From Escherichia phage vB-EcoP-XT32: a DNA stretch of 64,000 nt. This document shows positions 7,396 through 33,607 of this stretch, piece by piece; positions within the stretch are counted from its first letter, which is position 1, and each line of letters starts with the position of its first letter. Location: sequence record OR757435; one strand, written 5' to 3'. The position numbers and the translations under genes are program-made. The notes beneath the pieces were generated by a model. That model was not told the origin of the DNA and did no database searches. It worked only from the letters and a program-made list of their open reading frames with translations.

Positions 7396-7405
7396 TAATG
7401 TATAT
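7396..7405 (+). promoter_or_regulatory. TAATGTATAT motif (candidate phage-sigma-dependent promoter element)
   Basis: Exact 10-mer, one of three exact plus-strand copies in the window, all intergenic; 32 nt upstream of ATG at 7438, just after a terminator. Confidence 0.45.
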
Positions 7406-7437
7406 TCTTTGTCTACATATAACAAGGAGGACAACCT

Positions 7438-7950
7438 ATGGCAATGCCAGATTTCAGAGGAGCTTTTACATATAACCCAAATACAGGGCATCTTTTCTGG
7501 TCTATGAGTAACATATTCAATAAACAGAAAGGGCAACGTGCTGGATGTATTAATAATAAGGGATATCGTGTACTAACCTTCAAGAAGAAATCGTACCTAG
7601 AGCACAGGGTCATAGCTGAACTCTTTCTTCCTAAAGTAGAAGGGAAGGATTATGTCAACCATAAGAATGGAATAAAAGATGATAACAGGATTGAGAATCT
7701 AGAGTGGTGTACTCAACAAGAAAACTGTGTACATGCTTATGAAACAAAACTCTCAACACCAAGAAATCTTGAGGATAACCCTAATTCCAAACTTACTAAA
7801 GAACAAGTTCTTTTCTGTTTAGAGAACTATAAACCGAGGGACAGACAGTTCGGAGCTAGAGCTTTAGCTAGGAAGTTTGGAGTCTCTTCAAGTACAATAA
7901 GCCTGATAATCAATGGCACAAACTGGAAGGAGGTATCCTATGTTGCCTGA
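7438..7950 (+). CDS. HNH homing endonuclease
   Basis: 170 aa; N-terminal NUMOD4-like FRGAFTYNPNTGHLFW and HNH core HKNGIKDDNRIENLEW; inserted between capsid and tail genes. Confidence 0.8.
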   Translation: MAMPDFRGAFTYNPNTGHLFWSMSNIFNKQKGQRAGCINNKGYRVLTFKKKSYLEHRVIAELFLPKVEGKDYVNHKNGIKDDNRIENLEWCTQQENCVHAYETKLSTPRNLEDNPNSKLTKEQVLFCLENYKPRDRQFGARALARKFGVSSSTISLIINGTNWKEVSYVA

Positions 7951-8689
7951 CGTTCAATACCCCATCAATACCTATGGGTGGCTAAAGAAGGCCGTGGCCC
8001 TCTGGGCAGATAGGGACGATGACGAATTTGTTAATCAAATTCCAAACTTTATTAACTTTGCAGAGAAAGAGATTTATCGTAATTTACGTATCCCTCCTCT
8101 GGAAAAAGAAGTGTATTTAGATATTAAAGATGGAGTAGCTTACATTCCTCCTGATTACTTAGAAGCTCAATGGATGATGAGAGCCAAAGATGGTACAATC
8201 TTCCAAGTAACATCTCCTGAAGAGATTAGCTATCGTAGACAGCATGGAACAATTAACCCATCTCATTGGAACAATCAACCTGTTAACTTTGCTCGTTTCG
8301 GTAGTCGTTTCATTTTCTATCCTAGCATCGAAGCAGACACTCCGTATTACCCTGATGATGGAAGTCCTTTGATTCCAGCAGAAAACTCAGTAATTCTTAG
8401 TTATTATGCAGACCCACCGGAATTCCATGAAGACACAGACACTAGTGCTATTCTTACTATCGCACCAGAACTTCTTCTGTACTTTACTCTACGTCATGCT
8501 TGCTTGTTTGTTCAAGATGACAACGGAGTTCAGAAATGGTCAGCATTAGGAAAAGCTATCCTTGATGAAATGGTAGAGCAGAATAAGAAACAAGAGTACT
8601 CAGGTTCACCTATCGCAATTCCGAATAACATGACTCGGCTTCAGAGCAGCTTGCCTGATATTTATGGTATTCGTACTTCTCGTGTATAA
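7940..8689 (+). CDS. virion structural protein (putative head-tail adaptor or tail tube component)
   Basis: Start chosen at ATG 7940 with GGAGG 6 nt upstream (track ORF begins at 7913 inside the HNH gene); function from position only. Confidence 0.45.
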   Translation: MLPDVQYPINTYGWLKKAVALWADRDDDEFVNQIPNFINFAEKEIYRNLRIPPLEKEVYLDIKDGVAYIPPDYLEAQWMMRAKDGTIFQVTSPEEISYRRQHGTINPSHWNNQPVNFARFGSRFIFYPSIEADTPYYPDDGSPLIPAENSVILSYYADPPEFHEDTDTSAILTIAPELLLYFTLRHACLFVQDDNGVQKWSALGKAILDEMVEQNKKQEYSGSPIAIPNNMTRLQSSLPDIYGIRTSRV

Positions 8690-8698
8690 GGAGATAAT

Positions 8699-11600
8699 AT
8701 GATCAGTTACAACAATTCAGCACCTACAGCGGTGAATAATGTAGGCCAATTTGGTGCTACAGAAGGATCAATTGGTGCTTATAAATCAGCGGCTGAGTAT
8801 GCAGCTGATGCTAAATATTGGGCGCTGTTATCCCAGACTAAATATTCTTCAGTAGATGAGATTCTTGCTGAGGTAGAACGTCTATACGCTCAAGGGTTCC
8901 TGCTAGAGTCTGACATTAAGCAACTTAAAGAAGACTTTGAAGCACAGAATCAGACTCTTCTAGGTCTTATTCAGTCTACGGGACAGGCTATTGACAATAC
9001 AAATGCAGCTACAGATCTTTCAAGAGAAGCAACGCAGCAAGTCCTAGAACAGCTTGATATTATTTCTAATATGACGGTACAGACGACGCTACTACCCCCA
9101 GGTAGTTTGGCAACGGGTTCCTATGACAATACAACTGGTGTATTCTCTTTTGGTATTCCAGAAGGGAAGCCGGGTCGTGACGGAACAGATGGTACAATTT
9201 CAGACATTGGGGAAACTCCTGTTGGTATTCCTGTGTCGGATGATTATGGTTTTTTCGTAGATAAGGACTCTGGTGGGCTGTATAGAACCTCAATGGTTGA
9301 CATTGCTAATCTAATCCCCTCTGTTCGGTCAGTATCTCTTAATGGAGGTGTTGCTCAAACAGGAGAAGTTTCTTTACAGGTGGTTTCCAGTTTTAACTCA
9401 CGGACAGGTGTTGTATCACCGCAGGCCGGAGACTATACTGTTGAGCAGATTACCGGTGCAGCTAAGAGTGGCTCTAACTCAGATATTACCTCCCTCTCAG
9501 GTCTAACCACACCTCTCTCTCTGCTCCAAGGCGGTACGGGTTCTTCCACGGCAGAGGGGTCTAGATCTAATTTAGGATTAGGTGATGTTTCTGTAGAAAA
9601 TATTGTTCCTATTTCGAAAGGTGGTACAGGAGCAATTAATACTACTATTGCTAGATCTAATTTAGGATTAGGTGATGTTTCTGTAGAAAATATTGTTCCT
9701 ATTTCGAAAGGTGGTACAGGAGCAATTAATACTACTATTGCTAGATCTAATTTAGGATTAGGTGATGTTTCTGTAGAAAATATTGTTCCTATTTCGAAAG
9801 GTGGTACAGGAGCAATTAATACTACTATTGCTAGATCTAATTTAGGATTAGGTGATGTTTCTGTAGAAAATATTGTTCCTATTTCGAAAGGTGGTACAGG
9901 AGCAATTAATACTACTATTGCTAGATCTAATTTAGGATTAGGTGATGTTTCTGTAGAAAATATTGTTCCTATTTCGAAAGGTGGTACAGGAGCAATTAAT
10001 ACTACTATTGCTAGATCTAATTTAGGATTAGGTGATGTTTCTGTAGAAAATATTGTTCCTATTTCGAAAGGTGGTACAGGAGCCTCTTCTCCGGACACGG
10101 CAAGGCTCGCACTGGTTGCGGCTAAGAGTGGGGCTAACTCAGATATTACTTCGATGACAAATAAGGTAACTTTTTCTCAACCTATACGTATACCAAACGC
10201 CGTTGAGAGTGACGAAGCAGTGGCATTAGGTCAGGTATCTAATGTGGTCTCTCAAGAACTAGGCCTGCCTACAGGGTTTAATCTTATTGGAGATCTCCCC
10301 TCTATTGAACAACTTCAGACCTTAGAGGGAGCTTCTGTAGGTGACAAAGTCTTTGTAAGATCTTATGTCGAAGGGGCTAATATGGGAGGGGGTGTGTTTG
10401 TAGCAATAGACAATTCAGAAACAGCTGATGGGGTGGTGGTTTTCAGTGGAGTTTCTGTAAAATGGAAGAGGTTGCTATTCTCTGGAGAAGCTTCTGTGTT
10501 TGATGCAGGCTACACTGGCAGCGGGGATATTGCTGTTTATATCAACAAAGTGAACTCCTCTGGTTACGATTGTATAGTTCCAACTTCTGGATCCGTATTA
10601 TCTGAGATAGCTATTGACGTTTCTAAAGGAGCCTTGATAGGCTATAATAATTGTAAGCTTCAGGAAGGGGCTGGAGCAACAGGTCAATATTTCTTGAAGA
10701 TTATAAATTCAAACACAGATTATGGGCTTAGAGATTCGATTTCTTCAACAGCTAAGATATCAGGAGTGTCCTTTGTTGGTCTAGGTGCCAGAAAGGTTGT
10801 AATTGGAGGGACTGATAGTGGGGAGGTGTCGGAAGTTCGGATAGAAAATTGTGGTTTTATCTCAACAGCTGGTCTTGAATTCCTTGATAATTCATATAGG
10901 ATCCTTTTTGACAAATGTGCAATAAGTAGAAGCTTTACGGACACGGTTGTTTTTAAATCAAGAGCGAACTCTGGAGAAGTTATAAAGTTCAATCACTGCT
11001 GGTGCGTGGATAACGGAGGACCTTTTACTTTTGAGAATGGACAATTCATCTTTGATACGTGTTCACTTCCTGCTGGGAAAAAGTCTGGATATTTTGACCC
11101 AACCATTATAATGACAGACAACGCCACAGTTGTTTTTTCTAATGGGAACATTGAGTATCAACCGGATCAGTCTTTTGTTTCTTTTTCTGTTAATGGTAGT
11201 TCGAGATTGAGCATAAAAGATTCGACAATTTTGGTCCCTGTAGGTTTTAGTTCTGTCCCTATAGTAAGTAATGGGGATGGTTTTGTTTCTCTGACAAACT
11301 GCTCTCTACCTCTGTATGGCAACAATACTCTAGCCACTGGTTTCCCTACTCGCCAACTCATCGGCGGTGATAGTAAGAGAGTTGTGTCTAACGGATGTTA
11401 CCCTAGAGCTGGTTTTGTCTTAAGTAGGTGGGATCTTGGATCTATTGTAAGCCCTTACATTAATAGTCTTAGTAATGGTTCCGGGCAATTCTTAAATACA
11501 TCTAACTGGACATTTAGTCAAACAGGATCAGGGGTAGTGTCAGTTTCTCAACCCAATGATGTTCCGAGTTCGTCTCCTATGTTTAACACATCATTCTCTT

Positions 11601-11914
11601 TTGGTGTCCCAGATACGACTAGCTCGGCAAACTTCACCCAATCAGTGAGTGAGTGTCATCCCGGAAGATACTTTCAGTTTGGTTTTTGGGCTAAGAATAC
11701 AACCACTACACTAGCATCTATTAGGTTTCTAGATTCAGCAGGTAATGCAGTTTCTGAGTCTATTGGATATTACATACCTAGTAACAACTCGTTCAGTTTC
11801 TATGCTGTTATTGATTCAGTTCCTCCAGGGTCCAGTAAGGCTGAAATTAATTTCAACATAGGTGGCGCAGTTGGGGGGTGTGTTCTTCACAACATCATCT
11901 ATGGATTGATATGA
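8699..11914 (+). CDS. tail fiber/tailspike protein with tandem 30-aa repeats
   Basis: 1071 aa; fiber-like N-terminus; 5.8 perfect copies of a 30-aa unit (RSNLGLGDVSVENIVPISKGGTGAINTTIA); S/T/N/G-rich C-terminal region. Confidence 0.7.
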   Translation: MISYNNSAPTAVNNVGQFGATEGSIGAYKSAAEYAADAKYWALLSQTKYSSVDEILAEVERLYAQGFLLESDIKQLKEDFEAQNQTLLGLIQSTGQAIDNTNAATDLSREATQQVLEQLDIISNMTVQTTLLPPGSLATGSYDNTTGVFSFGIPEGKPGRDGTDGTISDIGETPVGIPVSDDYGFFVDKDSGGLYRTSMVDIANLIPSVRSVSLNGGVAQTGEVSLQVVSSFNSRTGVVSPQAGDYTVEQITGAAKSGSNSDITSLSGLTTPLSLLQGGTGSSTAEGSRSNLGLGDVSVENIVPISKGGTGAINTTIARSNLGLGDVSVENIVPISKGGTGAINTTIARSNLGLGDVSVENIVPISKGGTGAINTTIARSNLGLGDVSVENIVPISKGGTGAINTTIARSNLGLGDVSVENIVPISKGGTGAINTTIARSNLGLGDVSVENIVPISKGGTGASSPDTARLALVAAKSGANSDITSMTNKVTFSQPIRIPNAVESDEAVALGQVSNVVSQELGLPTGFNLIGDLPSIEQLQTLEGASVGDKVFVRSYVEGANMGGGVFVAIDNSETADGVVVFSGVSVKWKRLLFSGEASVFDAGYTGSGDIAVYINKVNSSGYDCIVPTSGSVLSEIAIDVSKGALIGYNNCKLQEGAGATGQYFLKIINSNTDYGLRDSISSTAKISGVSFVGLGARKVVIGGTDSGEVSEVRIENCGFISTAGLEFLDNSYRILFDKCAISRSFTDTVVFKSRANSGEVIKFNHCWCVDNGGPFTFENGQFIFDTCSLPAGKKSGYFDPTIIMTDNATVVFSNGNIEYQPDQSFVSFSVNGSSRLSIKDSTILVPVGFSSVPIVSNGDGFVSLTNCSLPLYGNNTLATGFPTRQLIGGDSKRVVSNGCYPRAGFVLSRWDLGSIVSPYINSLSNGSGQFLNTSNWTFSQTGSGVVSVSQPNDVPSSSPMFNTSFSFGVPDTTSSANFTQSVSECHPGRYFQFGFWAKNTTTTLASIRFLDSAGNAVSESIGYYIPSNNSFSFYAVIDSVPPGSSKAEINFNIGGAVGGCVLHNIIYGLI
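9561..10083 (+). repeat. perfect tandem repeat array, 90-bp unit x 5.8 copies, in-frame inside tail fiber gene
   Basis: Unit CTAGATCTAATTTAGG...ACTACTATTG repeats at 9561, 9651, 9741, 9831, 9921, 10011 with 100 percent identity. Confidence 0.95.
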
Positions 11915-11943
11915 TCTTGATACTCTATATGTGATAAGAACAG

Positions 11944-11981
11944 CCCATCAAGAATTTTTAGCAGTACCTTTTCTTGATGGG
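11944..11981 (+). promoter_or_regulatory. strong hairpin downstream of tail fiber gene (terminator or processing site)
   Basis: Perfect 11-bp inverted repeat CCCATCAAGAA ... TTCTTGATGGG with 16-nt loop; no clear U tract. Confidence 0.4.
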
Positions 11982-12029
11982 TAATGAAACTAATATATCT
12001 CAAGAGGTTAATATATAGGAGACACTTAA

Positions 12030-12248
12030 ATGAAAATGATGAAACAAGCTGCATATGGTTTGGTGTGTTTAGGTGCAGGTGTTGTGGTGTCGACCGCAGT
12101 TCCTGTAGGTGCAGTTCACCCATTAGTAAATATCCCTGCTCCAGTAGAGAAACTTAGTTCTCAATGTAAGCAGAGAATAATTCAAAATAACTTAGTTGTT
12201 ATTTGTCCTGATGCTGAATCTAACGCTCTGAGAAAGATATTACCTTAA
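12030..12248 (+). CDS. small protein with N-terminal hydrophobic segment (secreted/membrane; possible lysis accessory)
   Basis: 72 aa; MKMMKQAAYGLVCLGAGVVVSTAVPVGAV signal/TM-like segment; directly upstream of endolysin; AT-rich TAATATATAGG element plus SD upstream. Confidence 0.5.
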   Translation: MKMMKQAAYGLVCLGAGVVVSTAVPVGAVHPLVNIPAPVEKLSSQCKQRIIQNNLVVICPDAESNALRKILP

Positions 12249-12277
12249 TCTAAAGGGACTACAAAAGGAGGTTAGAA

Positions 12278-12769
12278 ATGGATAACGCCGCATTGCCACC
12301 TGTACAATTAAACTTAAGCCCAGCTGGAATTGAATTTATCATGAAGCATGAGGGTATGAGAACTAAGGCTTATAAAGATTCCGCAGGTATCTGGACGATA
12401 TGTGTAGGGGCTACGCGCGATATGAATGGTTATCCGGTTAGACAAGGATTAACGTATTCTATAGAGGATTGTCTAGCTCTGCTAGATAGAGACACACAAG
12501 ACTCTGTTCGTGCTACTCAGAAGAACATAAAGGTTCCTTTGCTAGTTCATGAGTTTGATGCACTCACCTCTTTCAACTTTAATGTTGGTAGTGGGGCTTT
12601 GAGCACATCTAAGTTAAGGAAGGTTATCAATGGAGACGTTAAAGGGGATGTATATTCTGAATTTCTTCGTTGGGATAAGATAACGGTCAAGGGAGTGAAG
12701 CAGAGAAGTCAGGGTCTTCATAACAGAAGGGTTGCAGAAGCTGATCTTTATACCGAAGGTAAATATTAA
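12278..12769 (+). CDS. endolysin, GH24 lysozyme (T4 lysozyme/lambda R family)
   Basis: 163 aa; catalytic region HEGMRTKAYKDSAGIWTICVGAT matches the T4L pattern E..(K/R).Y.D..G..TIG.G. Confidence 0.85.
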   Translation: MDNAALPPVQLNLSPAGIEFIMKHEGMRTKAYKDSAGIWTICVGATRDMNGYPVRQGLTYSIEDCLALLDRDTQDSVRATQKNIKVPLLVHEFDALTSFNFNVGSGALSTSKLRKVINGDVKGDVYSEFLRWDKITVKGVKQRSQGLHNRRVAEADLYTEGKY

Positions 12770-12781
12770 TGGAGGTGCCTC

Positions 12782-13585
12782 TTGGCTATTGAAACTAATG
12801 CGGTAGTAGTTACCGACTTAAACCCTCTCTATCCTCGTGATAGAGATTATATCTATGAAGGTGCAGCCCAGCTGCGCCTAGTTAAGCAAGTATTACAGAA
12901 CACATTCCCCAACTTAACTGAGCCTATGACAGTAGATTCTGATACACTAGCCGCCATCTCTGACAAGATCTCTTTTGCTGGTGACTATATGGATGTTGGT
13001 GGTCTGATGATTAAGAACGGTACAGCAGGTACTGGTAATAGCGACTTTACCACCAAAGCTCAAATGGAATCTTTTATGCTCAACTGGATGCAGAATAAGA
13101 TTTACAGGGTTGGGTCTTATTACATCACTGAGGAAGATATTAACCCTGGAGATTCTACATCTTTAGGGTTTGGTATCTGGACAGCAGTTACTGGTGTTAT
13201 CATGGGTGCTGGGGTTGTGAACCCTGATGGGACAGTCCCTAATGCTCAGCGTGTGGAGTTTACTGCTGGTGCTACAGGTGGTCGTGTTTACAACACAGTT
13301 AAGACAGAGAACCTGCCATTGACTACAATCTCTGGTTCAAGTTTTTCTCTTTCTAACTATACACACTCACACACTACATCATTTGGACGTGGAGATGCAA
13401 GTGGTCATAATAGCTCACCTAACTGGTACAGTCCAGGTAGTGGATATTCTGCTGTAACAAGTTCTGATACCCACACCCACTCTATCACTGGCAATGCAAC
13501 ATTTGGCTATGATGACGTATCTCGTCAACCTATAAATACGCTACCACCTTTCCGTGCAGCATATATCTGGAGACGTATTAGTTAA
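12782..13585 (+). CDS. tail fiber protein with phage tail-collar-type C-terminal domain
   Basis: TTG start with GGAGG 6 nt upstream; S/T/G/H-rich C-terminus (SHTTSFGRGDASGHNS...THTHSITG...LPPFRAAYIWRRIS) resembling collar-domain fibers. Confidence 0.6.
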   Translation: MAIETNAVVVTDLNPLYPRDRDYIYEGAAQLRLVKQVLQNTFPNLTEPMTVDSDTLAAISDKISFAGDYMDVGGLMIKNGTAGTGNSDFTTKAQMESFMLNWMQNKIYRVGSYYITEEDINPGDSTSLGFGIWTAVTGVIMGAGVVNPDGTVPNAQRVEFTAGATGGRVYNTVKTENLPLTTISGSSFSLSNYTHSHTTSFGRGDASGHNSSPNWYSPGSGYSAVTSSDTHTHSITGNATFGYDDVSRQPINTLPPFRAAYIWRRIS

Positions 13586-13594
13586 GGAGGAAGT

Positions 13595-16552: not shown

Positions 16553-16558
16553 TACTAA

Positions 16559-16586
16559 GGGAGCTTCGTGCTCCCTTTTCTTGTTT
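16559..16586 (+). terminator. rho-independent terminator
   Basis: GGGAGC-TTCGT-GCTCCC hairpin followed by TTTTCTTGTTT. Confidence 0.6.
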
Positions 16587-16602
16587 ATAAGAAGGAGGTT
16601 AT

Positions 16603-17571
16603 ATGGGTGCTGGTGGCTTTCGTAAGAATACCGGAAGAAACAACACAACACAACCTTATAGTGTGGGTTTTCTAAACACCTCTGAGAGTGTAGAAACTAA
16701 CAACGTTGCAATATATGATGAACTCCAGAATATCAGTACTGCAACTAATCAAATGTTCCAAGCTATAGATGAAATCCATGAGGAGATTGATGTTCGTATT
16801 AAAGCTCTTCATGCTATGAATTTACAATTCGATGAACTAGAGAACCGTGTTACTACAGAGATTGAGACTGCCATTGCAGATATCATAACACAAATGGGTA
16901 ATCTATCCACTGATGACATTTGGGATAATTCTGTTAGTCCTCCTGTCAAGCTGGATTCAACTGTGTCCGGTATCAAAACGTCTATAGAAGGAAATACAGC
17001 ATCTATCCAAACTGTCGAAGGGATTGTTAACGACCAAGGACAAGAGATAGCTCTTATTCAATCTGATCTCACTAATGGCACAGGAAGTGCATCTCAGTAT
17101 ATGAAGCTCACCGAGTATGAGGCTACTTGGGGTGTTAATTCCACAGTAAACGGCAAGACAGCAGGGGTAAAGCTAACAAACAATGGCACTATAAGCCAGT
17201 TCCAAGTAACAGCTGATAAGTTTGTGGTATCTGATGGCACGTCAGGAAGTACCCCATTCAGGGTTGAGAACGGTAGAGCTGTTATGGAGTTTGCTGATAT
17301 CACTAACGTAGTTATCACCTCTGCTCAAATTGCAACTGCTACTATTGAGTGGGGGCAGATTACCAACGTATCAATCACCAATGCTCAGATTCAAAGTTTG
17401 TCTGCTGATAAAATAACTGCTGGTACAATGTCAGGTACTAACTGGAGGTTTACTGTTGGAGGTGATTTCGTTATGGGTGGCACAGGTGGGGCACAATTAT
17501 GGATGAATGGAAACAGGATAGACTTCTATGATGGAAGTGGTGCTCTGAGAATTAGGATAGGGAGTTGGTGA
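16603..17571 (+). CDS. tail fiber-like structural protein
   Basis: 322 aa; repetitive fiber-like segments (ITNVVITSAQIATATIEWGQITNVSITNAQIQSLSADKITAG); SD AGGAGG upstream. Confidence 0.5.
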   Translation: MGAGGFRKNTGRNNTTQPYSVGFLNTSESVETNNVAIYDELQNISTATNQMFQAIDEIHEEIDVRIKALHAMNLQFDELENRVTTEIETAIADIITQMGNLSTDDIWDNSVSPPVKLDSTVSGIKTSIEGNTASIQTVEGIVNDQGQEIALIQSDLTNGTGSASQYMKLTEYEATWGVNSTVNGKTAGVKLTNNGTISQFQVTADKFVVSDGTSGSTPFRVENGRAVMEFADITNVVITSAQIATATIEWGQITNVSITNAQIQSLSADKITAGTMSGTNWRFTVGGDFVMGGTGGAQLWMNGNRIDFYDGSGALRIRIGSW

Positions 17572-17572
17572 T

Positions 17573-21465: not shown

Positions 21466-23121
21466 ATGCAACAGACAACTTACGCTCAGGTCAGAAGTCG
21501 TGACCCGAGAAATACTTTCTACGGTGTTAATCCGGGAGCGGCTTCGGCCTCTCCTTATATGGCTAGACCTACTCAGACAGCGGATGTTTCTATGTACCAG
21601 CGTCCTGCTGTACCTTCATCTCTCGCAGGTCTTGTCTCTCAGGCAGAAGAAGATCAGAATGCTATGATGAATCCGGGATTCCAGCAACGTCTTATGGAAC
21701 AACAGAATCAAGGAACCCCAACAAGTCTTCAGGGTATTGACATTGGAGCACCAGCCCCTGTAGCAGCTAATCCTAATTTATCTACTGATCAAGGTTTGCA
21801 GGATGCTGGACTTATGCCTAGTGACCCTCTTCCGGTGACACCTCCTGCCAAGCCACTAGAAACTGGTCCTATGGAGTTTACTCCTTCTCAGGTTGAACAA
21901 GCACAAGGTGTTGTTAATACTCTTGCTCAAGGACAAGACACCGGTGACGGAATGGCTGCTGCTACTCGTACTAAAGATCAAGAGCGTGTTAACAATGATA
22001 TCTTGCAAGTTGCAAAAGCTAAAGATCCTTCAGAAGCTTGGAAGAAGTTACAGAAAGAACCTTTCTATCAGAACTCTAGTTTCTATACAGGTTTAATGGG
22101 TGTAGGTCTTTCTATCATGTCAGGTAAATCTCCTATCGAAGCATTCCAGATTGGTCAGGGGATGGCTAATCAAGATGAGACTAAAAAGCAACTGGAAGCT
22201 AACCGTGATGCTCTGATTGAACAAGGTTTCTCTCAAGACTCAATTGCAGCTGCTATAGCTCAGGGTGATCCTTCTCTTCTGAAGATGAAAGCTAAAGACC
22301 CTCTTCAACAGGAAGCTCTGTATGCTGCTCGTGAAGAACGTCAGAATGCTGAATGGGATAGACGTCAACAGATTCAAGAGCAGTCTATGCGTGAACGTGC
22401 TGAGGAAACTCGTCGTGCTGCTGAAAAGAGAACTGACATGAACTTTGAACGTCAGAAAGAGTTGATTGGTTATCGTGATAAAGTTAAGGCTGAACGTGCT
22501 GAACAAGTTGCTCAGAGTTTTAACTTTAACCCGAAAGAAGTTCGTCTTGCTCAGAACACAGCTGAAGGTACAGTTGCTAAGCAGTGGGCAGAGAAAGGTG
22601 GTCTGTTTAACCAGTCCAACAAAGACTTGGATTTGGCTGACAAAGCAGTTAAAGATAAAGACTACCAGACAGCTCGTTCTGCTTACATGCAGGCTATCAT
22701 GAACTCCGCAAGGGCTGAAATCGGTGCTACTCGTTCCCTTACCGAAGAAGACTTGGGACACTTCGCAGAAGACCCATCAATCTTCATTCGTGTTGGCAAC
22801 AAGTTTGCTCTTAAGTCAGGATGGCGTCCTACTGACTCTGCTCTTTCTTATGCCCGTAAGCAGGCTAATGTTGGTCATACATCTGCAATGAAAGGTGTTG
22901 CTGATGCTAAGAGAGCTACTATCGAAGCGTACATTGGTTCAGGTATGGATAAGAAGAGGGCTACTGCATTGGTTAACCGTGCAATTCCTTCTGGTGGTTT
23001 CTATGACCCACTCGGTGTTTTCTCTGAACAGGCAGAAGAGGCAGTTGGTGGTGCAGCAACCAATCCTAAACTAAACGGTGCTTTATCAGCTGTTGAAGAC
23101 ACCAGCTGGTTCGCTCAATAA
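21466..23121 (+). CDS. internal virion/ejection protein (hypothetical)
   Basis: 551 aa; internal hydrophobic segment FYTGLMGVGLSIMSG; charged helical regions. Confidence 0.45.
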   Translation: MQQTTYAQVRSRDPRNTFYGVNPGAASASPYMARPTQTADVSMYQRPAVPSSLAGLVSQAEEDQNAMMNPGFQQRLMEQQNQGTPTSLQGIDIGAPAPVAANPNLSTDQGLQDAGLMPSDPLPVTPPAKPLETGPMEFTPSQVEQAQGVVNTLAQGQDTGDGMAAATRTKDQERVNNDILQVAKAKDPSEAWKKLQKEPFYQNSSFYTGLMGVGLSIMSGKSPIEAFQIGQGMANQDETKKQLEANRDALIEQGFSQDSIAAAIAQGDPSLLKMKAKDPLQQEALYAAREERQNAEWDRRQQIQEQSMRERAEETRRAAEKRTDMNFERQKELIGYRDKVKAERAEQVAQSFNFNPKEVRLAQNTAEGTVAKQWAEKGGLFNQSNKDLDLADKAVKDKDYQTARSAYMQAIMNSARAEIGATRSLTEEDLGHFAEDPSIFIRVGNKFALKSGWRPTDSALSYARKQANVGHTSAMKGVADAKRATIEAYIGSGMDKKRATALVNRAIPSGGFYDPLGVFSEQAEEAVGGAATNPKLNGALSAVEDTSWFAQ

Positions 23122-23141
23122 GACCTAAGTCCTGCCTTCTA

Positions 23142-23151
23142 TAATGTATAT
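23142..23151 (+). promoter_or_regulatory. TAATGTATAT motif (candidate phage-sigma-dependent promoter element)
   Basis: Exact copy 38 nt upstream of ATG 23189; overlaps a TATAAT hexamer. Confidence 0.45.
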
Positions 23152-23188
23152 AGGGGGTAGGACATTTTTATTTATAAAAGGAGACGTT

Positions 23189-26100
23189 ATGGCTAACATT
23201 AAACCGTGGGAAGAAGCTTCCAAAGCTCCTGCGTATCTGAATGCCTCTCCGGAGCGTCAAGCTCAAATGAGAGAACAATATAAGGCAGCAGGTGGCTCTA
23301 TTCCTGAGGAACAACCAGTAGCACAACCACAACAAGAAGAACGTGGTGCTATAGGTGAGTTTGCTCAAGGTGTGTCAAATGCTCTTCAATCTGGTGGTGC
23401 AAACATTGCAGCTAGTGCTGCTAAAGGTATTGGTGGTTTAGTTGAGATTGGTGAGAATCTAGCTGGAGCACAAACTAGTTATGGTAAGCGTATCCAAGAG
23501 AACTCTCAGAACCTTCTGAAAGATCGTATGGATAAGATTGAGGATGGGATTGGTAAAACTGCTGGGCAATATGCTGGCGTTGTTGGTGATATTGGTTTGA
23601 CTGTTGCTAACCCATTAGCTGCCGCTGCTATCATTGCAGGTCGTGAGACAGGTCGTGCATATGCAGACCAAACTCCTGAAGAGGGAGAAGATAAGTCTGT
23701 TCTGGATGCCGCTCTAGTTGGTGGTGCTAACTATGCAGCTCAGAGAATCCTTCCGGGTGCTGTTGGTACAGCTGAGTCTACACTTGGTCGTATTGGTCAG
23801 AACGTTGCTAGTAACGCAGTGGCTGGTGCTAAAGGTGGTGCTCTTGTAGGTGCTGCTGAAGCTCAGAACAAACATGGTGATGACACAACCTTTTCTAATG
23901 TCTTAGAAGGTGCTATTGAAGAAGGCGCTATGGGTGCTGCATTCGGTGGTGCAGTTGGTGGTGTCCATGGTTTGATTAGTCGTCCAGATTCTGCTGTCTT
24001 TAAGAATACTCCAGAGTATGCAAAGACTGACATTGCTGCTGATGATGAATTAATTCGTAGTGCTAAGAACATTGATGAGCTGAAAGAAGCATACTCTAAA
24101 GCTGAAACTGCTAACGCCGCTTCTGCCCTTAACCTTCTGGATGAGAACGGATTCCGTATCACAGATGCTGTTGCTGTAGACTCTCCTGCTGCTCAGCGCA
24201 TCCTTAATACAGACCAAGCTCGTGCCGAGAAAGCTGCTTCTGTTCAGAAAGAACATTCTAACATTCCTGGCCTCAATCCTTTGGCTTCTCCTTCTAAAGT
24301 TCGTGGTAAAGCATTCGCTGATAACGAGCACAACCAGAAGCAAGCTGTTGCTATGAAAGATGCAATGGCTGATTACACAAAGGATAACACTAAAGCTCTT
24401 ACAGATGTTCTGGATAATCTTGATCGTGAGTTAGTGTCTCTCCGAGCTTCTGGTGATTTTCCTGGTAGTCCGATTGACATTAAGAACCGTACACAAGCTG
24501 ACCGTGATTTCATTGATGCTTACAAGACTTTCTACAATGAAGCAAATCGATTCAAAGCTCGTGATGGTGAAGACTTTAATAACTTTGTAGAGAAAGCTGC
24601 TGAACTACAGAAGATGGCTGATAATGTTTCTCCAGAGATGAAGAAAGCTATTGGTGGGTTGAAGAAACTGAAAGGTATGCCTGAAGGTTTTAATCCTATT
24701 CAAGATGCTTACACTCTGAATAATACAGCTAAGTTCATGAGCAACCAAGACCGTGGTTGGACGTCCCTGACTGATGATGGATTCCGTGAGGCTTCTTCTC
24801 CTAGTCTGGTTATGAACACACTCGGTGCTGCTAAGTATGCTCTGAATCGCTTCTCTTCTCAGCGTGCTCGCTCTCAACGTGTTAAGCAACAAGAATCTAA
24901 CAGTGAAGCTATCCGCTCTCTGGCTCGTGGTGATTTGGAAGTTGCTCGTGCTAAGTCTACTGCTGATGAAGCTCGTGCTAAAATGGAAGAAGAACCAGTT
25001 GTTGGTGACATTAAATTTAAGACGCAAAATGACGTAGAAACCGAACCGGTTCGGGAGCCTTCTTCTAGTACTGTGACGGAAGAAAATCTTTCTTCTTCTG
25101 CTCCTCAAGAAACCCCTCTTACAGCTCGTGATTTAGTTGCGCAAAGACGTGCTATCCGTCAGGCTGAACAGCGTCGCGCTGAAGAAGAGGCAGCACAGGC
25201 TCAAGAAGCTCCGGTCGAACAAGCTCCACAGGCTGAACCTCTCCCTGCTCGTAACCCTTTAGAGGAACGTCGTGCAATGGAACAGCAACGTGCTCAAGAA
25301 GAGGCCGCACAGGCTCCAGAACCAACCGTAGAGGAACCAACAGTCAAAGCTGAGCCATTACCTGCCCGTGCTCCTAAAGCTCCTAAGGAAGCTGTACAGG
25401 ACGTTAAACCGGCAAGTGGTGTAGAACGTTTAGCTGCTATGTCTAGTGCTGCTCGTCAGGCTACTAAAGATCGTGCAGAACGCTTTGCTCGTTCTCTGTA
25501 CTCTGAGGCTGCTAAGGCTAAAGCTACTGCTGAAAACTTCTTGGCTTATAAAGGTGGTACTAAGGAATTGATGCGTCGTATTCGTCAGGAAGATAATGCT
25601 ATCAACACTGAACGTCATGAAGAAATGGCTCGTAACCAGTTGTCTTCTCAGCAAGGTATTGCTACTGCTAAGAACAACACTGTACGAACTAATTTTGCTG
25701 AATGGGTTAAGGAACGTGGTCTGCCAGAAGATATTGCTACTAAGGCATTACGTGCTGAAGAGAAAGGTTTAGGTGGGAACGTTACTAACTTGGATAGTCT
25801 GAAACGTCGTGCTGAAAGATTGTATCAGAAGCAGCGTGAGGATGAGTTTGATAGACTGTATCAACAAGCTCTAGAAGAGAACAAAGCTTTTGATAAGAAA
25901 GATGCTCCTAAACTGGTTGACCAGAAGAAAGAGCTTCAGTCTGAGATTGACACTTTGATTGATTCAGAACCTTTACGTCCTGCTCAGAAAGATGCTATGC
26001 GTAAGCTGATGAATGATTATGTAGATGGGAAGTTTAAATCTTCAGAGAAGGCTGGTAGAGAAGAGGCTTTGGAAGTTGGTCAGATGAAGGATGTTTGGGA

Positions 26101-27610: not shown

Positions 27611-27620
27611 TAAAAGAAAA

Positions 27621-27646
27621 GCCCTCAAGGAGAAATCCAAGAGGGC
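27621..27646. terminator. hairpin at convergence point of plus and minus transcription blocks (bidirectional terminator candidate)
   Basis: GCCCTC ... GAGGGC stem with long loop, flanked by A-rich 5' side and T-rich 3' side; 10 nt after plus-strand stop and 9 nt before minus-strand stop. Confidence 0.45.
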
Positions 27647-27654
27647 TTTATTAT

Positions 27655-28020
27655 TTAACGTCCCCAATCTTTATTGGTAAACGTTTTCAGTCTGTGACAG
27701 TTCGCACAAAGTGTTTGAAGGTTTTCTTCTCTGTTATCTTTGTGGTTACCATTTATGTGATCTACATCTAATTGGCAAGTGTGTTTAGGGATGAAACCGC
27801 ACATCTCGCACACTTCTTTCTTAAAGTCTACATATGGTGATTTATACCTTCTAGTACGCTCTCTGTGTGCATCCATATTCTCATACTCTCTTTTATTACA
27901 AGGAGAGCACAAGGGTGCAAACTTTCCACCACCCTTTGATTTCTGAGGGTTCTTGTTGCACAAAACACAAAGACCACGAACATTAGATGGCTCTGTTTTT
28001 CTAAACCTCCATGTTCCCAT
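27655..28020 (-). CDS. HNH endonuclease
   Basis: 121 aa; Cys-rich zinc-binding pairs and HNH core CQLDVDHINGNHKDNREENLQTLCANCH. Confidence 0.75.
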   Translation of the reverse strand: MGTWRFRKTEPSNVRGLCVLCNKNPQKSKGGGKFAPLCSPCNKREYENMDAHRERTRRYKSPYVDFKKEVCEMCGFIPKHTCQLDVDHINGNHKDNREENLQTLCANCHRLKTFTNKDWGR

Positions 28021-28460
28021 TAATCCTCCTTGGAAGGGGCTTTATTTATTTCTAGATTTTCTTGTAAGTGATAGTTCCTTCTTTAACAGCTTTATCATAA
28101 GCCGCTTTGAACTTTTTCATCATATCAATTTTGCTCTGTTTTATCTTTTCAAGATCCATCAAATTCATCCTCATACATCCCAATTCTCTTCAGAAATCTG
28201 GATGTTCATCTTCAAAGCATCCTGAGATGCCTCCATAGAACCAATCTGATTTACTGCCAAGGATAACAACTTCTTCATTCATATACCCTCCTAGATTGTG
28301 TTTATAAAATTAGTAAGTTTCTCTTCGCTTTCATCAAAAGCTTTTCCAGCTGCTTCCATCTCCCAAGTCTCGGCATTGTCAATAAAGCTCTGAGCTTCTA
28401 ATAGATCGTGGATTAAGTCGAAGAGTTTATTTTTATCTGCTTGTGTGATCATGTCAGTTC

Positions 28461-28688
28461 CTAGATTAAATCGTAATACTGAATAATGTCAGAGAGTTTG
28501 AACTCTCGAATCTCATCTTTCTCTACATCTATCGCTGTCATAATCCAACAAGGTTTGCCACCGTTATGAAAACGGGAGCTAGCAACGGAGGTTCGGAGTG
28601 GAATAACGGACCGGTCAGCAATCTCGCCTCTCCAATTGCGATAGCGAAAGCGAAGCACTTGTTGCGTAGATTTTTGATCATCACTCAT
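28461..28688 (-). CDS. hypothetical protein
   Basis: Start moved to ATG 28688 (AAGGAA upstream) to limit overlap with HNH gene; 75 aa. Confidence 0.4.
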   Translation of the reverse strand: MSDDQKSTQQVLRFRYRNWRGEIADRSVIPLRTSVASSRFHNGGKPCWIMTAIDVEKDEIREFKLSDIIQYYDLI

Positions 28689-29103
28689 TTCCTTTTTTGA
28701 ATTGTTTTCTTGCATCATTTTCCATCTTAGTTTTTAGTTTATGACAAGGGTCTTTACACAGAACCTGAAAACCTTCTTTCTCACACAGAGCACGAGAGAT
28801 AATTTCATCCCAAGTTGCTTCATGGTCAAGAGGAACGATAGGATTTATATGATCTATAGCCATATCCTTTACAGGGTGATCAGAACCACACATGGCACAC
28901 TTAAAGTGCATTGCCAGTCTGCCTGTTTTTGGATTAATCTTCTGCTCTGTCTTGGCGTCTGCTAGTGCATCGAACATGGGCTTCCACTTTCTAGTCAGAG
29001 AACGAATCCCTGACTTGATGAAAGAATTGTAACGAGCTTCAGTCCACATTCCAGAGCATCTAGTCTTCTCAGACTTCGCCATAATCAGCTTCTTCCCATA
29101 CAC
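28681..29103 (-). CDS. HNH endonuclease
   Basis: CAMCGSDHPVKDMAIDHINPI ... QVLCKDPCH HNH-type motif; true start may be the internal Met at 29082. Confidence 0.7.
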   Translation of the reverse strand: MYGKKLIMAKSEKTRCSGMWTEARYNSFIKSGIRSLTRKWKPMFDALADAKTEQKINPKTGRLAMHFKCAMCGSDHPVKDMAIDHINPIVPLDHEATWDEIISRALCEKEGFQVLCKDPCHKLKTKMENDARKQFKKGNE

Positions 29104-29248
29104 GTTTATCTACTCGATGTGATACTTTTTCACGCTTTTCTTTAATATAGCGATTGCCTAATTCATGACTATATTTAATACGCTGCTCTTTTCGAGATTC
29201 GCGATTGGAGGAGTTTTCATCATATGAACGATAGTCAAATTTACCCAT
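29069..29248 (-). CDS. hypothetical small basic protein
   Basis: Start placed at ATG 29248 with AAGGA upstream (track ORF extends into the upstream gene). Confidence 0.35.
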   Translation of the reverse strand: MGKFDYRSYDENSSNRESRKEQRIKYSHELGNRYIKEKREKVSHRVDKRVWEEADYGEV

Positions 29249-29261
29249 TATAATATCCTTA

Positions 29262-30080
29262 TTACCAAGTTTTTTCGAGCCACGACCAATCAAATAGGTC
29301 TTCCGGAGTCTGACCAACAAAGAGCAGCCGAGCATTCTCAAGCATCTTCTCTTCATCTTCAGTATCGAACTTCTTATAATATTCCATTCGTACTATATGA
29401 TACATGGTCCACTTGTCTGTAACACCAGCCAACAACTTAGCTGCTGCTTTCTTCCCTATTCCTTGACGTCGAAGCTGGAGCTTACCTCCCCACATAACTT
29501 CTTTACGTTCTCCACATCCGGGGATATTATCTGTACCGTCTCCAATCAACATCTGATAGAAGAAGTTTTGCCACGAAACTAAATCAGATACATAGTGAGG
29601 AGGAACTTCTTTCTGTCTTTCTCCACAAGCCCAACGGTAGTGCCATCCGGGAGTTATCAACAAATCCTTGTCTCTAGTACAGATGATAGTGTTCTTATCT
29701 CTACGCTGTCTTTCAGCTAGTGCATCATCAGCCTCTCTCCCAAATACATCTATGTATTCATATTTACCTTTAATGTAATCACCAACGTTCTGCCAGTGAA
29801 AAGGTCTTTCTCCGGGAGGTCTGTTTGCCTTGTAGTCTTGCTGCTTAGCAACATCGAAACGGAAGTTACCACCTTCGCTGAAGTAGAACACAACCTTACT
29901 GCAACCTGATCGAGCAATTATAGTATCTATCTTGTACTGAAGTCGTTCAATCATGAAATTGTAATCAACTGGAACACGTCCTGTGTCAAGGAAGGGATGC
30001 TCCTGAGTAAGAGCACCCACTTCATATCGAAGAACGTCAGCATCCACTATAGCTACTTCAGGGAGCTTAACTTCTTCCAT
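29262..30080 (-). CDS. 5'-3' exonuclease / flap endonuclease (T7 gene 6-like)
   Basis: 272 aa; AIVDADVLRYEVG, ICTRDKDLLITPG and IGDGTDNIPGCG match FEN/53EXO family signatures. Confidence 0.8.
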   Translation of the reverse strand: MEEVKLPEVAIVDADVLRYEVGALTQEHPFLDTGRVPVDYNFMIERLQYKIDTIIARSGCSKVVFYFSEGGNFRFDVAKQQDYKANRPPGERPFHWQNVGDYIKGKYEYIDVFGREADDALAERQRRDKNTIICTRDKDLLITPGWHYRWACGERQKEVPPHYVSDLVSWQNFFYQMLIGDGTDNIPGCGERKEVMWGGKLQLRRQGIGKKAAAKLLAGVTDKWTMYHIVRMEYYKKFDTEDEEKMLENARLLFVGQTPEDLFDWSWLEKTW

Positions 30081-30671
30081 AAACTTTATCTCTATTTTCA
30101 GCTATAATCCAATCCAAGTAGTACCGAGCTTCCGAAATAGTTCGATTGTTGGATAATGTACAAGTTTCTAACTGCTCCCCTTCAATATAATTCCTAGAAT
30201 CTCCAGAAAAATCACAACCATTCCTGTGAACTTGAACTACTACTACATTGAAAGACTTTTCTAGCTCTCTCACCTCTGCTTCAAACCCACCATCAGTAAA
30301 CAGGATAACATCATTGTGATTCCTTCCTTCTGACTTGATACTATTTACTGCTTGGGTTCCCATGTAGTTCTTACCAAACATAGGTTTTAAGTAATCTTCA
30401 CTTGTGGAAATCATTAAATCTCTGACAGACCTACCTCCCCATTCAGGCCTAGGTTTTTCTTTCCAGTTTCGATCTTTATAAAACTCCAGAAAATCCTCCA
30501 AGTTCAAACCTAATGCTGCGGAGGCGACTTTGTACATAGGCTCTTTAAATGATTTAATATAACGAGAATAAGACGCAATGTGGGATTTTAGTAACCACTC
30601 CTCAGCTATCGTATCCTTACCACAACCCGGAGGCCCATTAAGAATTACTACTAAAGGTTTAGGCTCATTAC

Positions 30672-30681
<10 letters not shown>
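30067..30681 (-). CDS. P-loop kinase, probably deoxynucleoside monophosphate kinase
   Basis: 204 aa; Walker A LNGPPGCGKDT near N-terminus; sits among nucleotide-metabolism genes. Confidence 0.6.
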
Positions 30682-32167
<1,486 letters not shown>

Positions 32168-32171
<4 letters not shown>

Positions 32172-32428
32172 TCTACTCCACGCTCTTTCAGAGCTTCTAA
32201 CAATCCATTGTGATTAGCAGCACATTCTGTGTACTGGTCCTGATACCACTCCAACGTAGTGGCTAGTGCCTTTCCTTGAGCACTCTCTAAAAGAGGCAGG
32301 TCAACCCTACATTCAGCTTTTAGGTTTGTTGGTAAGGGCATCGATTGCCTGCTGCTGTCGCTCGTTGAACATGCGGATGTAGTCATCACTAGCGCAGACA
32401 TTATAAAAAACTGGTTTAGTTTTCTCAT
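32168..32428 (-). CDS. o-spanin (outer-membrane lipoprotein, Rz1-like), overlapping the i-spanin gene out of frame
   Basis: Start at internal ATG 32428: MRKLNQFFIMSALVMTTSAC with lipobox-like TSAC, Pro-containing mature region; begins inside the i-spanin gene in another frame and extends beyond its stop. Confidence 0.5.
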
Positions 32429-32663
32429 AATGCATCTCTTTATAAACGGTTTCCGTGTTCTTCTTCCAGTTGGATAAACCGGTAAGAACTCTCTGAGCAA
32501 CTTCATCAGCTGCCTTACTTCTTTCAATCTCTAACTCTTGTTGATGCTTTTCTTTATCCAGATTGTTACTGTCTGTTCTGTACTCATTAAACTTCATACC
32601 ACCAAAGAACACCAGAGCAGAGAAGATAACAAATCCTAGATTATCACTTAAAGTGCTTTGCAT
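32313..32663 (-). CDS. i-spanin (inner-membrane spanin, Rz-like)
   Basis: Start at ATG 32663 (GGAG upstream); N-terminal TM GFVIFSALVFFGG then charged helical periplasmic domain (EKHQQELEIERSKAADEVAQ). Confidence 0.55.
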   Translation of the reverse strand: MQSTLSDNLGFVIFSALVFFGGMKFNEYRTDSNNLDKEKHQQELEIERSKAADEVAQRVLTGLSNWKKNTETVYKEMHYEKTKPVFYNVCASDDYIRMFNERQQQAIDALTNKPKS

Positions 32664-32674
32664 ATTGACTCCAA

Positions 32675-32698
32675 CGAAAAAAGCCACCCGAAGGTGGC
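32675..32698 (-). terminator. rho-independent terminator (minus strand) between SSB gene and spanin genes
   Basis: Minus-strand hairpin AGCCACC-TTCG-GGTGGCT followed by TTTTTTCG. Confidence 0.5.
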
Positions 32699-32720
32699 TA
32701 AGCTATAACAAGGAGAGTTA

Positions 32721-33467
32721 TCAGAATGGGCTGTCGTTGTCATCTTCATAAGTAGAAGCAGGCTCTTTATCAATCGTAGGGATTGAAGGAGTAGCTTCTT
32801 TCTGCTCTGTTTCAGAAGCACGAGTAATTTCACGACCAGCCAGAGGCATGTTCTTAGCGTCATTAGCTTGAGTAAGCAGGTTGCGCTGGAACGGGAACAT
32901 CAGTTGATAGGATGCTACGTTCTCATCGGTTTCCGCATACGGTTCGAAGAATACCAGAGGACTGCGAGCTTCACCAACTGCTGCACGATATTTGGTTGGG
33001 ATTGGAGAAATGGTCTTGATGGAGTTTTTAACTTCACCAGCTTTGTTAGTGTAGGAGTTAACCAGAATGTTAACAGGCTGACCTAACAACACATCCTTAA
33101 ACCAAGACAGATCACCTTTCAGTGCTTGAATGCTTGGGTCAATCATCTTGCAGAGATCAAGAATACCAGAGTTCTTAGCTCGTGGGTTTACATCATAACT
33201 CTTGAACTGGCAAGCAGGACGTGGTTCTAATGCCTTACCATCGGAATCTTTACCAGTAGCATCAACACCAATCAGCTCGAAAGCCAAATCCATACGGAAA
33301 GCTGGATTCTTAGGAGTTACTGCTTTGGTCTTCGGGTCAACCCAAGGATCACGATTGTGAACACCCAAACCTACTACACGAACGATACGTGCTTCATATT
33401 CACCATCAGGGATAATATCGTAGTTGGATTTACGAGAAGAAGTTGCGATAGTTGGGATCATGCTCAT
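32721..33467 (-). CDS. single-stranded DNA-binding protein (T7 gp2.5-like)
   Basis: 248 aa; acidic C-terminal tail ending in aromatic residue (...TYEDDNDSPF) as in gp2.5-type SSBs; lies in the replication gene region. Confidence 0.55.
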   Translation of the reverse strand: MSMIPTIATSSRKSNYDIIPDGEYEARIVRVVGLGVHNRDPWVDPKTKAVTPKNPAFRMDLAFELIGVDATGKDSDGKALEPRPACQFKSYDVNPRAKNSGILDLCKMIDPSIQALKGDLSWFKDVLLGQPVNILVNSYTNKAGEVKNSIKTISPIPTKYRAAVGEARSPLVFFEPYAETDENVASYQLMFPFQRNLLTQANDAKNMPLAGREITRASETEQKEATPSIPTIDKEPASTYEDDNDSPF

Positions 33468-33523
33468 TATTAATTTCCTTATTTAATTTGAAAGATTGTT
33501 GCTCTCTTTGAGCGGTTATGTAT

Positions 33524-33534
33524 AGTATACATTA
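33524..33534 (-). promoter_or_regulatory. TAATGTATACT motif, minus orientation, about 58 nt upstream of SSB gene
   Basis: Plus strand reads AGTATACATTA; reverse complement matches TAATGTATA core. Confidence 0.35.
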
Positions 33535-33597
33535 CGCTTATACCGATAAGGGTACTATATAATATAAGTATCTTTGGTAGTAGATATAACACACTAG

Positions 33598-33607
33598 TAA
33601 TGTATAT
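33598..33607 (+). promoter_or_regulatory. TAATGTATAT motif (third exact copy) in AT-rich intergenic region
   Basis: Exact 10-mer followed by ATTGTATAG; region 33468-33800 is AT-rich and non-coding. Confidence 0.4.

Follow-up and report, generated by a model that had tools for sequence, protein, structure and literature searches.

The gp36/gp79 transcription programme of a phiEco32-type coliphage and a candidate seventh, divergent gp36 promoter

Sequence record OR757435 of Escherichia phage vB-EcoP-XT32 was analysed as one stretch of 64,000 nucleotides (the window; one strand, positions counted from its first letter), with attention to a phage sigma factor and to a recurring promoter-like element, the 9-mer TAATGTATA. 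The window is almost certainly a phiEco32-type (Kuravirus) coliphage genome, and the element and sigma factor belong to the transcription programme already published for such phages. TAATGTATA is the published gp36 promoter element, and the gp36/gp79 system is already known. An orthologous sigma factor, gp79 in the same genome, and tAATGTAtA elements before the homologues of genes 13, 26, 40 and 58 were all found, and there is no evidence contradicting the identification as a phiEco32-type gp36/gp79 system. An earlier reading made from the sequence alone (the sequence-only reading) had noted a likeness to phiEco32 and proposed phage-specific promoters. That reading is correct, and the system is already known, because the gp36 and gp79 orthologues, the published consensus and contexts matching those of phiEco32 are all present. 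Possible novelty may be confined to a divergent seventh promoter and the ultra-conserved non-coding block that follows it.

The phage sigma factor and its activator gp79

Nucleotide identity to the window is 98.8% for Escherichia phage vB-EcoP-XT18 and approximately 90% for phiEco32, SU10, NJ01 and about 90 further Kuravirus-like coliphages. The open reading frame (ORF) at 31061-31708 on the minus strand, which probably starts at the second of its ATG codons, 31705, encodes the orthologue of the phiEco32 sigma factor gp36. Its product is identical at 213 of 214 positions to PDB entry 9m7y_F, 'RNA polymerase ECF sigma factor' (E 2.6e-145; ECF, extracytoplasmic function), and matches PHROG 1740, 'RNA polymerase sigma factor' (E 6e-46). 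The sole difference, K28R, lies outside the contact residues listed in PMC12276001, and all DNA-contact residues named there (E79, H80, Y83, R84, W90, S91, S94, N95, Y186 and R187) are retained. The sigma-like protein of the sequence-only reading is thereby confirmed, its gene lying on the minus strand.

The accompanying label 'ECF-like' stands as a loose resemblance at the level of the fold, taken from the published structure, but not by curated sigma-70/ECF models. The protein scored 19.1 bits against Pfam Sigma70_r2 (cut-off 24) and 23 bits against TIGR02937 (cut-off 42.9), failing each curated cut-off, and among the curated Pfam and NCBIfam models none for region 4 matched. Like gp36, ECF (group IV) sigma-70 factors are small two-domain proteins, with a sigma2-like N-terminal and a sigma4-like C-terminal domain, that bind the clamp helices and the flap tip helix (PMC12276001). 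In gp36, by contrast, helix alpha1 is rotated and alpha4 shortened, and an extended -10-like element dominates the promoter in place of an AAC/CGT-type -35/-10 pair. Furthermore, gp36 is assisted by the activator gp79, and no anti-sigma partner is known.

The gp79 orthologue is encoded at 50886-51134 on the minus strand; it is identical to phiEco32 gp79 at 81 of 82 positions and matches PDB 9m7y_G/9m7z, 'gp79' (E 1.6e-51). In phiEco32, sigma70-bearing host RNA polymerase transcribes the early genes, after which the middle-gene products gp36 and gp79 take over (PMC12276001). Herein, gp79 displaces region 4 of sigma70 and stabilises the C-terminal domain of gp36; it inhibits both the sigma70 and the sigmaS holoenzymes and raises gp36-dependent transcription from promoters P26 and P68 three- to four-fold (PMC12276001). 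The window contains no RNA polymerase gene, as the sequence-only reading had also noted, which fits the known use of host RNA polymerase by phiEco32-type phages (PMC12276001).

The promoter element and the published promoter set

In phiEco32, six gp36-dependent promoters have been mapped, upstream of genes 6, 13 and 26 (late) and of genes 40, 58 and 68 (middle) (PMC8948821 and its Table S3; PMC4331800; PMC4281155 and its S2 table; PMC12276001). This list was taken from the four later papers rather than from the original mapping study (Pavlova 2012). The promoters share the single consensus tAATGTAtA, and transcription starts 6–8 bp downstream of the element (PMC8948821; PMC4331800; PMC4281155; PMC12276001). 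The N-terminal domain of gp36 reads -14A, -13A, -12T and -11G, with DNA melting from -11, and its C-terminal domain contacts -37G (through R187) and -34A (through Y186), both of which are required (PMC12276001). On the phiEco32 genome, the elements were located at 1677, 9101 and 26014 on the plus strand and at 36632, 42937 and 46862 on the minus strand.

Within the window, the 10-mer TAATGTATAT occurs in three exact copies (7396-7405, 23142-23151 and 33598-33607), all on the plus strand and all intergenic, and the judgement that such a number is improbable by chance was upheld: 0.19 copies were expected by shuffling, and none of 100 shuffles gave three or more. The informative unit is the 9-mer TAATGTATA, with five exact copies against 0.55 expected, a count likewise reached in none of 100 shuffles. 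The two additional copies lie on the minus strand at 33526-33534 and 39722-39730. The first of these is the near-copy in inverse orientation that had been placed near 33524-33534, a real element that reads TAATGTATAC at 33525-33534 and belongs to P40; the second had been overlooked. One-mismatch searches remained at chance level, both for the 10-mer (six found, 5.0 expected) and for the 9-mer, and alone do not reveal promoters.

It is extremely improbable that the motif arose by chance in A+T-rich intergenic DNA, or that it serves a non-transcriptional function as a recombination or homing-endonuclease site. The element is A+T-rich and partly palindromic (TATA-ATGTA-TATA), and mosaic breakpoints adjoin copies of it, an HNH insertion following P13 and different sequence lying upstream of P58. 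However, the shuffled counts contradict a chance origin, and both versions are refuted by phiEco32 experiments on identical sequences, in which P26 and P68 were reconstituted in vitro and one was seen in an open complex.

Four of the six published promoters (P13, P26, P40 and P58) were recovered in the window, with flanks matching phiEco32. P6 falls outside the window on its left side, since the window begins at the equivalent of about phiEco32 position 1969. At 44362-44856, a run of 495 N covers the homologue of gene 68 together with P68, the sixth in-window promoter; the region is collinear with NJ01, which carries TTGGTAGTAGATATGGTAACTCTCAAATGTATA at the position corresponding to P68. The ORFs listed across this run (44188-44968) are artefacts, and a single N is also present at 63885, within tRNA-Arg(TCT) at 63848-63928 on the minus strand. 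Altogether, phiEco32 gp36/gp79 (Savalia 2008; Pavlova 2012; Xu 2025; PDB 9m7y) represents the same system, with a sigma factor 99.5% and a gp79 99% identical, the same element, and syntenic P13, P26, P40 and P58. The window differs from phiEco32 in the HNH gene directly after P13, in the replaced gene 59 region upstream of P58, and in the masking of P68.

The late and middle promoters of the window

The start sites given for these four promoters (7411, 23157, 33519 and 39715) are predictions; gp36-dependent initiation and stimulation by gp79 are known from experiments on phiEco32, in which the sequences are identical. The P13-equivalent late promoter has its element, at -15 to -7, at 7396-7404 on the plus strand, with a predicted start at about 7411, and its context differs at one base in 94 nt from phiEco32 9061-9154. 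An intrinsic terminator, formed by a hairpin at 7344-7361 and a T-run at 7362-7367, precedes it, and the copy lies 33 nt before the ATG at 7438. This ATG opens an HNH endonuclease ORF (7438-7950, plus strand; Pfam HNH_3, E 4e-13) inserted at the opening codons of the homologue of gene 13. Its similarity to gp13 is limited to MAMPD, the first five codons, and the gp13 homologue restarts at 7913-8689 on the plus strand, where it is identical to gp13 at 246 of 248 positions. The endonuclease ORF has taken the ribosome-binding site of gene 13, its first five codons and promoter P13, and is now the first gene that this promoter serves. The sequence-only reading had placed two copies 30–40 nt upstream of structural operons, just after terminators; the terminator and the distance proved right at 7396, but the first gene there is the endonuclease, and the copy at 23142 lies inside a hairpin.

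That hairpin belongs to a terminator-like structure with a T-run at 23129-23169 on the plus strand, detected by terminator scanning and folding, in which the late promoter P26 is embedded. The hairpin GTCCTGCCTTCTATA-ATGTA-TATAGGGGGTAGGAC spans 23129-23163, has 15 bp with six G-C pairs, and is followed by ATTTTT (ATTTTTATTT); the -10 element of P26, TAATGTATA at 23142-23150, forms its loop and top. The predicted structure has the make-up of an intrinsic terminator, a G+C-containing stem and a U-tract on the transcribed strand, and folds at -22.8 kcal/mol (z -5.8) on the plus strand and at -13.5 kcal/mol on the minus strand. Compared with phiEco32, the P26 context is identical from -26 onward, with four differences farther upstream. 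The real start codon after P26 is at 23189, and the ATG at 23144 in the ORF list is not the start. In the metagenomic relatives L023, L024 and L026, whose sigma factors are 49–71% identical, both the hairpin and the motif survive base changes, 93% of cells being paired. P26 has served as a gp36/gp79-dependent template (PMC12276001). Its predicted start at about 23157 falls in the 3' arm of the hairpin, so RNA initiated at P26 would be unable to form the structure, whereas read-through RNA could. P26 would then be part of the terminator that ends the preceding late operon, with the hairpin folding in read-through RNA and not in its own transcript.

P13 and P26 have a further feature in common. 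The sequence TAAGACCTA is present at both (7373-7381 and 23119-23127), 23 nt upstream of TAATGTATA or at about -38 to -30, and likewise in phiEco32. It differs from the TTGGTAGTAG block found at P68 and at the seventh site described below, and may represent a -35 or activator element of the late class.

The P40-equivalent middle promoter is an exact 9-mer at 33526-33534 on the minus strand, with a predicted start at about 33519, and drives the gp40 homologue at 32721-33467 (minus strand). One base in 94 nt differs from the phiEco32 36632-36640 region, and TATACATTA at P40 is unchanged across 16 aligned relatives. The P58-equivalent middle promoter, also an exact 9-mer, lies at 39722-39730 on the minus strand, with a predicted start at about 39715, and drives the gp58 homologue at 39362-39685 (minus strand). 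Relative to phiEco32 42937 (minus strand), the sequence downstream is near-identical, with one difference, and the sequence upstream is different. Directly upstream of the P58 -10 element, 39731-39770 (minus strand) is unrelated to phiEco32 42946-42985; the gene 59 homologue is absent and PhoH lies directly next. A mosaic breakpoint therefore abuts the promoter element.

Two further promoter-like sequences were observed on the minus strand. TAATGTTTA, in which the AATG core is kept, lies at 31772-31780 inside a macro-domain gene, 64–72 nt upstream of the sigma start; its phiEco32 counterpart at 34877-34885 (minus strand) directly abuts TAAGACCTA. This site could be a weak autoregulatory gp36 promoter. 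In addition, a sequence matching the sigma70 consensus at 12/12 positions (TTGACA-17-TATAAT, with a TG upstream) is present at 38116-38144, within the first approximately 20 codons of the DNA polymerase ORF (36327-38171, minus strand).

A candidate seventh gp36 promoter

The third plus-strand copy differs in its setting. It was grouped with the others in the sequence-only reading; however, it has no plus-strand gene downstream and is not among the six published promoters. It lies in the 333-bp gene 40/41 spacer, between two minus-strand genes and back-to-back with P40 at a distance of 64 bp. The same copy is present in phiEco32 at 36704-36712, outside its six listed promoters. The candidate seventh gp36 promoter spans 33574-33606 on the plus strand and consists of a -35-like block, TTGGTAGTAGATAT (33574-33587), a 10-nt spacer (33588-33597) and the -10 element TAATGTATA (33598-33606), with a predicted start at about 33613. 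TTGGTAGTAGATAT is identical to the -35 block of P68 in phiEco32 and NJ01 and stands in the same register, and the site presents AATG at -14 to -11 together with -37G and -34A, as in P68.

Conservation extends across both parts of the site. TGGTAGTA[G/T]AT and TAATGTATATA are kept in 16–18 relatives from two genera, and the 10-base spacer between them varies in sequence, never in length. Degenerate -35/-10 versions occur at the same place in relatives with sigma factors 66–80% identical, namely GGTAGTG-N15-GAATGTATT in L027 (80%), GGTAGTG-N14-TAATGAATA in L030 (71%), GGTAGTG-N14-TAATGTATT in L024 (66%) and GGAAGTAG-N15-AATGAAAT in L023 (71%). These divergent copies came from contigs that encode sigma homologues; pattern scans of IMG/VR and metagenomes returned close Kuravirus relatives only. 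An insertion of approximately 110 nt with its own inverted repeats lies between P40 and the -35 block in L009 (ES17; 475-585), L012, L031 and L033-L035. The ES17-type insertion ends precisely where the -35 block begins on its upstream side, and the ES17 annotation places a 47-amino-acid ORF in it. At another position, L023 carries TGGTAGTAG-N13-AAATGTATA (12793-12841, plus strand in the locus), a P68-like bipartite site between two middle genes, a hint that this pairing of -35 and -10 elements forms a promoter class that can be reused.

The conserved non-coding stretch downstream

From the predicted start, a conserved non-coding stretch extends over 33613-33765 on the plus strand. It comprises a 5' hairpin (33613-33629), a variable module, a second hairpin (33680-33694), an A-rich linker and a long hairpin (33703-33764). 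Five different stem sequences of the 5' hairpin were distinguished across relatives, with pairing kept. Versions include AUAGCU/AGCUAU, AUAGUU/AACUAU, GAGUU/AACUC and AUAGA/UCUAU, as well as the unrelated stems CUCU/AGAG, ACAUC/GAUGU and AAGC/GCUU; L024, L027 and L030 carry three unrelated stem sequences. In A2, two pairs of this hairpin stay paired despite two-sided changes, one of them with three pair types. The phiEco32 version includes a G.U pair that is valid on the plus strand only, and a single A-to-G change in the downstream region is likewise compatible only with plus-strand pairing.

The middle module exists in at least four unrelated, swappable versions, all of which start with UUGCA and end with GAAGGGC. 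The second hairpin, GCAGG-AGACA-CCUGC, reads GCAGG-AGMCA-CCUGC across relatives, with a compensatory change to GCUGG/CCAGC in L027. The long hairpin has a 15-bp outer stem with three G.U or U.G positions, its G.U pairs being valid for the plus strand alone, and folds at -20.4 kcal/mol on the plus strand and at -14.6 kcal/mol on the minus strand. Furthermore, a block of approximately 75 nt (GATAAAAATAGAGAATT...GATTCTCT) is essentially unchanged in every sequence found that carries it, including L027 (sigma 80% identical) and L030 (71%). The exceptions are one-base substitutions (the window and Bas88), length differences of 1–3 bases, and, in L027 and L030, slight erosion at the outermost end of the helix.

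Several searches and candidate features yielded no alternative identity for this region. Rfam 15 over the window at gathering thresholds returned tRNA-Arg only, and at permissive E-values over 33400-33900 the best hit had an E-value of 0.19, far below the gathering score, and no family was assigned. Comparison of the invariant block with 5,426 E. coli genomes and with 185,579 species genomes gave no match, and with it no sign of a host origin or host target, and a full-text literature search for Kuravirus transcriptomes or antisense RNA returned nothing relevant. No conserved ORF was found in the spacer; short ORFs of 20–48 amino acids with TTG or GTG starts only were rejected as genes, because module swaps disrupt them. 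A long-range helix, UUGCAGG/CCUGCGA, around the variable module came from single-sequence folds and was discarded, L027 supporting the local GCWGG/CCWGC hairpin instead. A concerted loss of G in two AGGGACT repeats was also rejected as covariation, being explained by linkage to the downstream flank (recombination).

Altogether, the copy at 33598 would be a genuine seventh gp36 promoter, divergent from P40, that initiates a non-coding transcript at about 33613. This RNA would begin with a protective 5' hairpin and continue into an ultra-conserved structured 3' part, and it may be a separate regulatory RNA, or it may form the 5' end of a transcript, antisense or primer, that runs against the middle genes. 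Among the readings considered, a gp36-dependent middle or late non-coding transcript, either a discrete structured RNA or an antisense start against the middle/early cluster, appears the most likely, and it is put forward tentatively on the strength of sequence comparison. The same guarded confidence, falling somewhat short of even, applies to the broader proposal that Kuraviruses and their relatives have an unlisted seventh gp36 promoter leading into a conserved non-coding RNA of at least approximately 150 nt, which would serve as a late regulatory or antisense RNA against the middle/early cluster, or as a primer or activator of an origin.

A number of observations weigh against such a transcript. 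The site is missing from the promoter lists of the later papers, and the original mapping study (Pavlova 2012) could have rejected or reported it. One metagenomic variant reads TAATATATA and has lost the critical -11G. In L023 and L024 the promoter and the 5' hairpin are kept, and the conserved block is absent, with A+T-rich DNA in its place. No plus-strand intrinsic terminator was found within approximately 3.8 kb after the candidate promoter. Covariation over the whole structure is modest, with two double-change pairs, a count reached in 67 of 500 shuffles; most of the putative RNA is invariant and therefore shows no covariation there. Finally, U5 comes after the long hairpin on the minus strand, a layout that could instead make it a terminator for that strand ahead of P40.

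Some of these points would also suit an explanation in which the copy at 33598 is no independent promoter but an auxiliary or decoy site for the gp36 holoenzyme near P40, or an inverted relic of a P68-like module, the block working on the minus strand or as DNA, for instance as a terminator or insulator that separates the gene 41 side from P40, or as protein-binding DNA. The inverted position 64 bp from P40, the lack of a plus-strand gene or terminator downstream and the absence of the site from the six experimentally mapped promoters are consistent with it, as are the UUUUU after the long hairpin on the minus strand, where folding still reaches -14.6 kcal/mol, and the abundance of DNA palindromes in the block (AAGGA-A-TCCTT, TCCTAGGA). 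However, a relic would have no need of the full bipartite architecture that has been kept, with its -35 block in the P68 register, its spacer of fixed length and free sequence, and its invariant -10 element. In addition, the covarying hairpin stands exactly at the predicted +1, and the long stem, owing to its G.U pairs, is clearly favoured on the plus strand. This explanation is considered unlikely.

Replication genes beside the site and a possible origin

The product of the gene driven by P40 had been called a single-stranded DNA-binding protein (SSB) in the sequence-only reading. The gp40 homologue is 'hypothetical' in phiEco32, SU7 and the other records examined. Its C-terminus is acidic (...DDNDSPF) with an SSB-like tip, and it models as an oligonucleotide/oligosaccharide-binding (OB)-fold protein; no SSB sequence model matched. 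The label finds backing in the modelled fold and the acidic tip, but not in sequence models, and is tentatively regarded as plausible, not firm. All 21 gp40 homologues tested match the NCBIfam model 'rep_init_NGO0469' (phage replication initiation protein NGO0469) below threshold. A role for gp40 as replication initiator was rejected, the score being 24.9 bits against a cut-off of 75 and the fold pointing to an OB-fold SSB-like protein.

These neighbours bear on a further possibility, in which the seventh promoter, the block and the adjacent A+T-rich stretch form a replication origin, and the gp36 transcript opens the duplex or primes the leading strand. Such an origin would lie among replication genes, with the OB-fold SSB-like gp40 homologue adjoining and exonuclease, DNA polymerase and primase/helicase genes in the same cluster, and the shared match of the gp40 homologues to the initiation-protein model points the same way, weakened by its low score. 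Whether or not they carry the block, all relatives have an A+T-rich tract with ACTTA-type repeats after the promoter, and a primer or R-loop RNA would agree with the missing terminator. Iteron arrays were not identified, however, and the cumulative GC skew turns at about 28 kb, at the late/middle boundary, and not at 33.6 kb; the skew is uninformative as an origin marker, because it follows gene orientation. An origin at this site is judged improbable.

Promoter-primed origins are represented by T7 phi1.1A/B and T4 oriF/oriG, and phage antisense or small RNAs by lambda oop and P22 sar, all of which serve as analogies for the seventh site only. The site resembles them in that a promoter without a protein gene is followed by structured and/or A+T-rich DNA among replication genes. 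It differs in that no Rfam family is related to it in sequence or structure.

Comparison with other phage transcription systems

The redirection of host RNA polymerase by phage-encoded factors has been described in other phages. In Salmonella phage 7-11, a related podovirus, the phage sigma factor gp47 sends the host enzyme to promoters at similar genome positions (PMC8948821). This system differs in that gp47 is only about 15% identical to gp36, recognises a consensus of two parts, GTAAtg-16-aCTA, and operates with no gp79 and no middle promoter class (PMC8948821). Another strategy is the AsiA/MotA system of T4, in which a small phage protein removes or remodels region 4 of sigma70 and switches the polymerase to phage middle promoters (compared in PMC12276001). 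T4 retains sigma70 and adds an activator, whereas in phiEco32-type phages a separate phage sigma factor replaces sigma70.

Implications for phage transcription

As first stated, the finding of a phage sigma factor with recurring promoter elements adds nothing new, since gp36, gp79 and the tAATGTAtA promoters have been mapped, reconstituted and solved by cryo-electron microscopy in phiEco32. What is gained is, first, a reliable transcription map of the window, comprising four promoters, two protein factors and one masked site. Another gain is the promoter-in-terminator arrangement of P26, which persists, with altered bases, in three metagenomic relatives that have sigma factors 49–71% identical. 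Furthermore, a complete-looking, conserved gp36 promoter faces the wrong way and is followed by a non-coding block that is near-unchanged where the sigma factor is only 71–80% identical. This candidate seventh promoter is an easy target for the existing in vitro assays. Should it be active, a model phage transcription system would gain a further product, either a non-coding or antisense RNA or a transcript that primes an origin.

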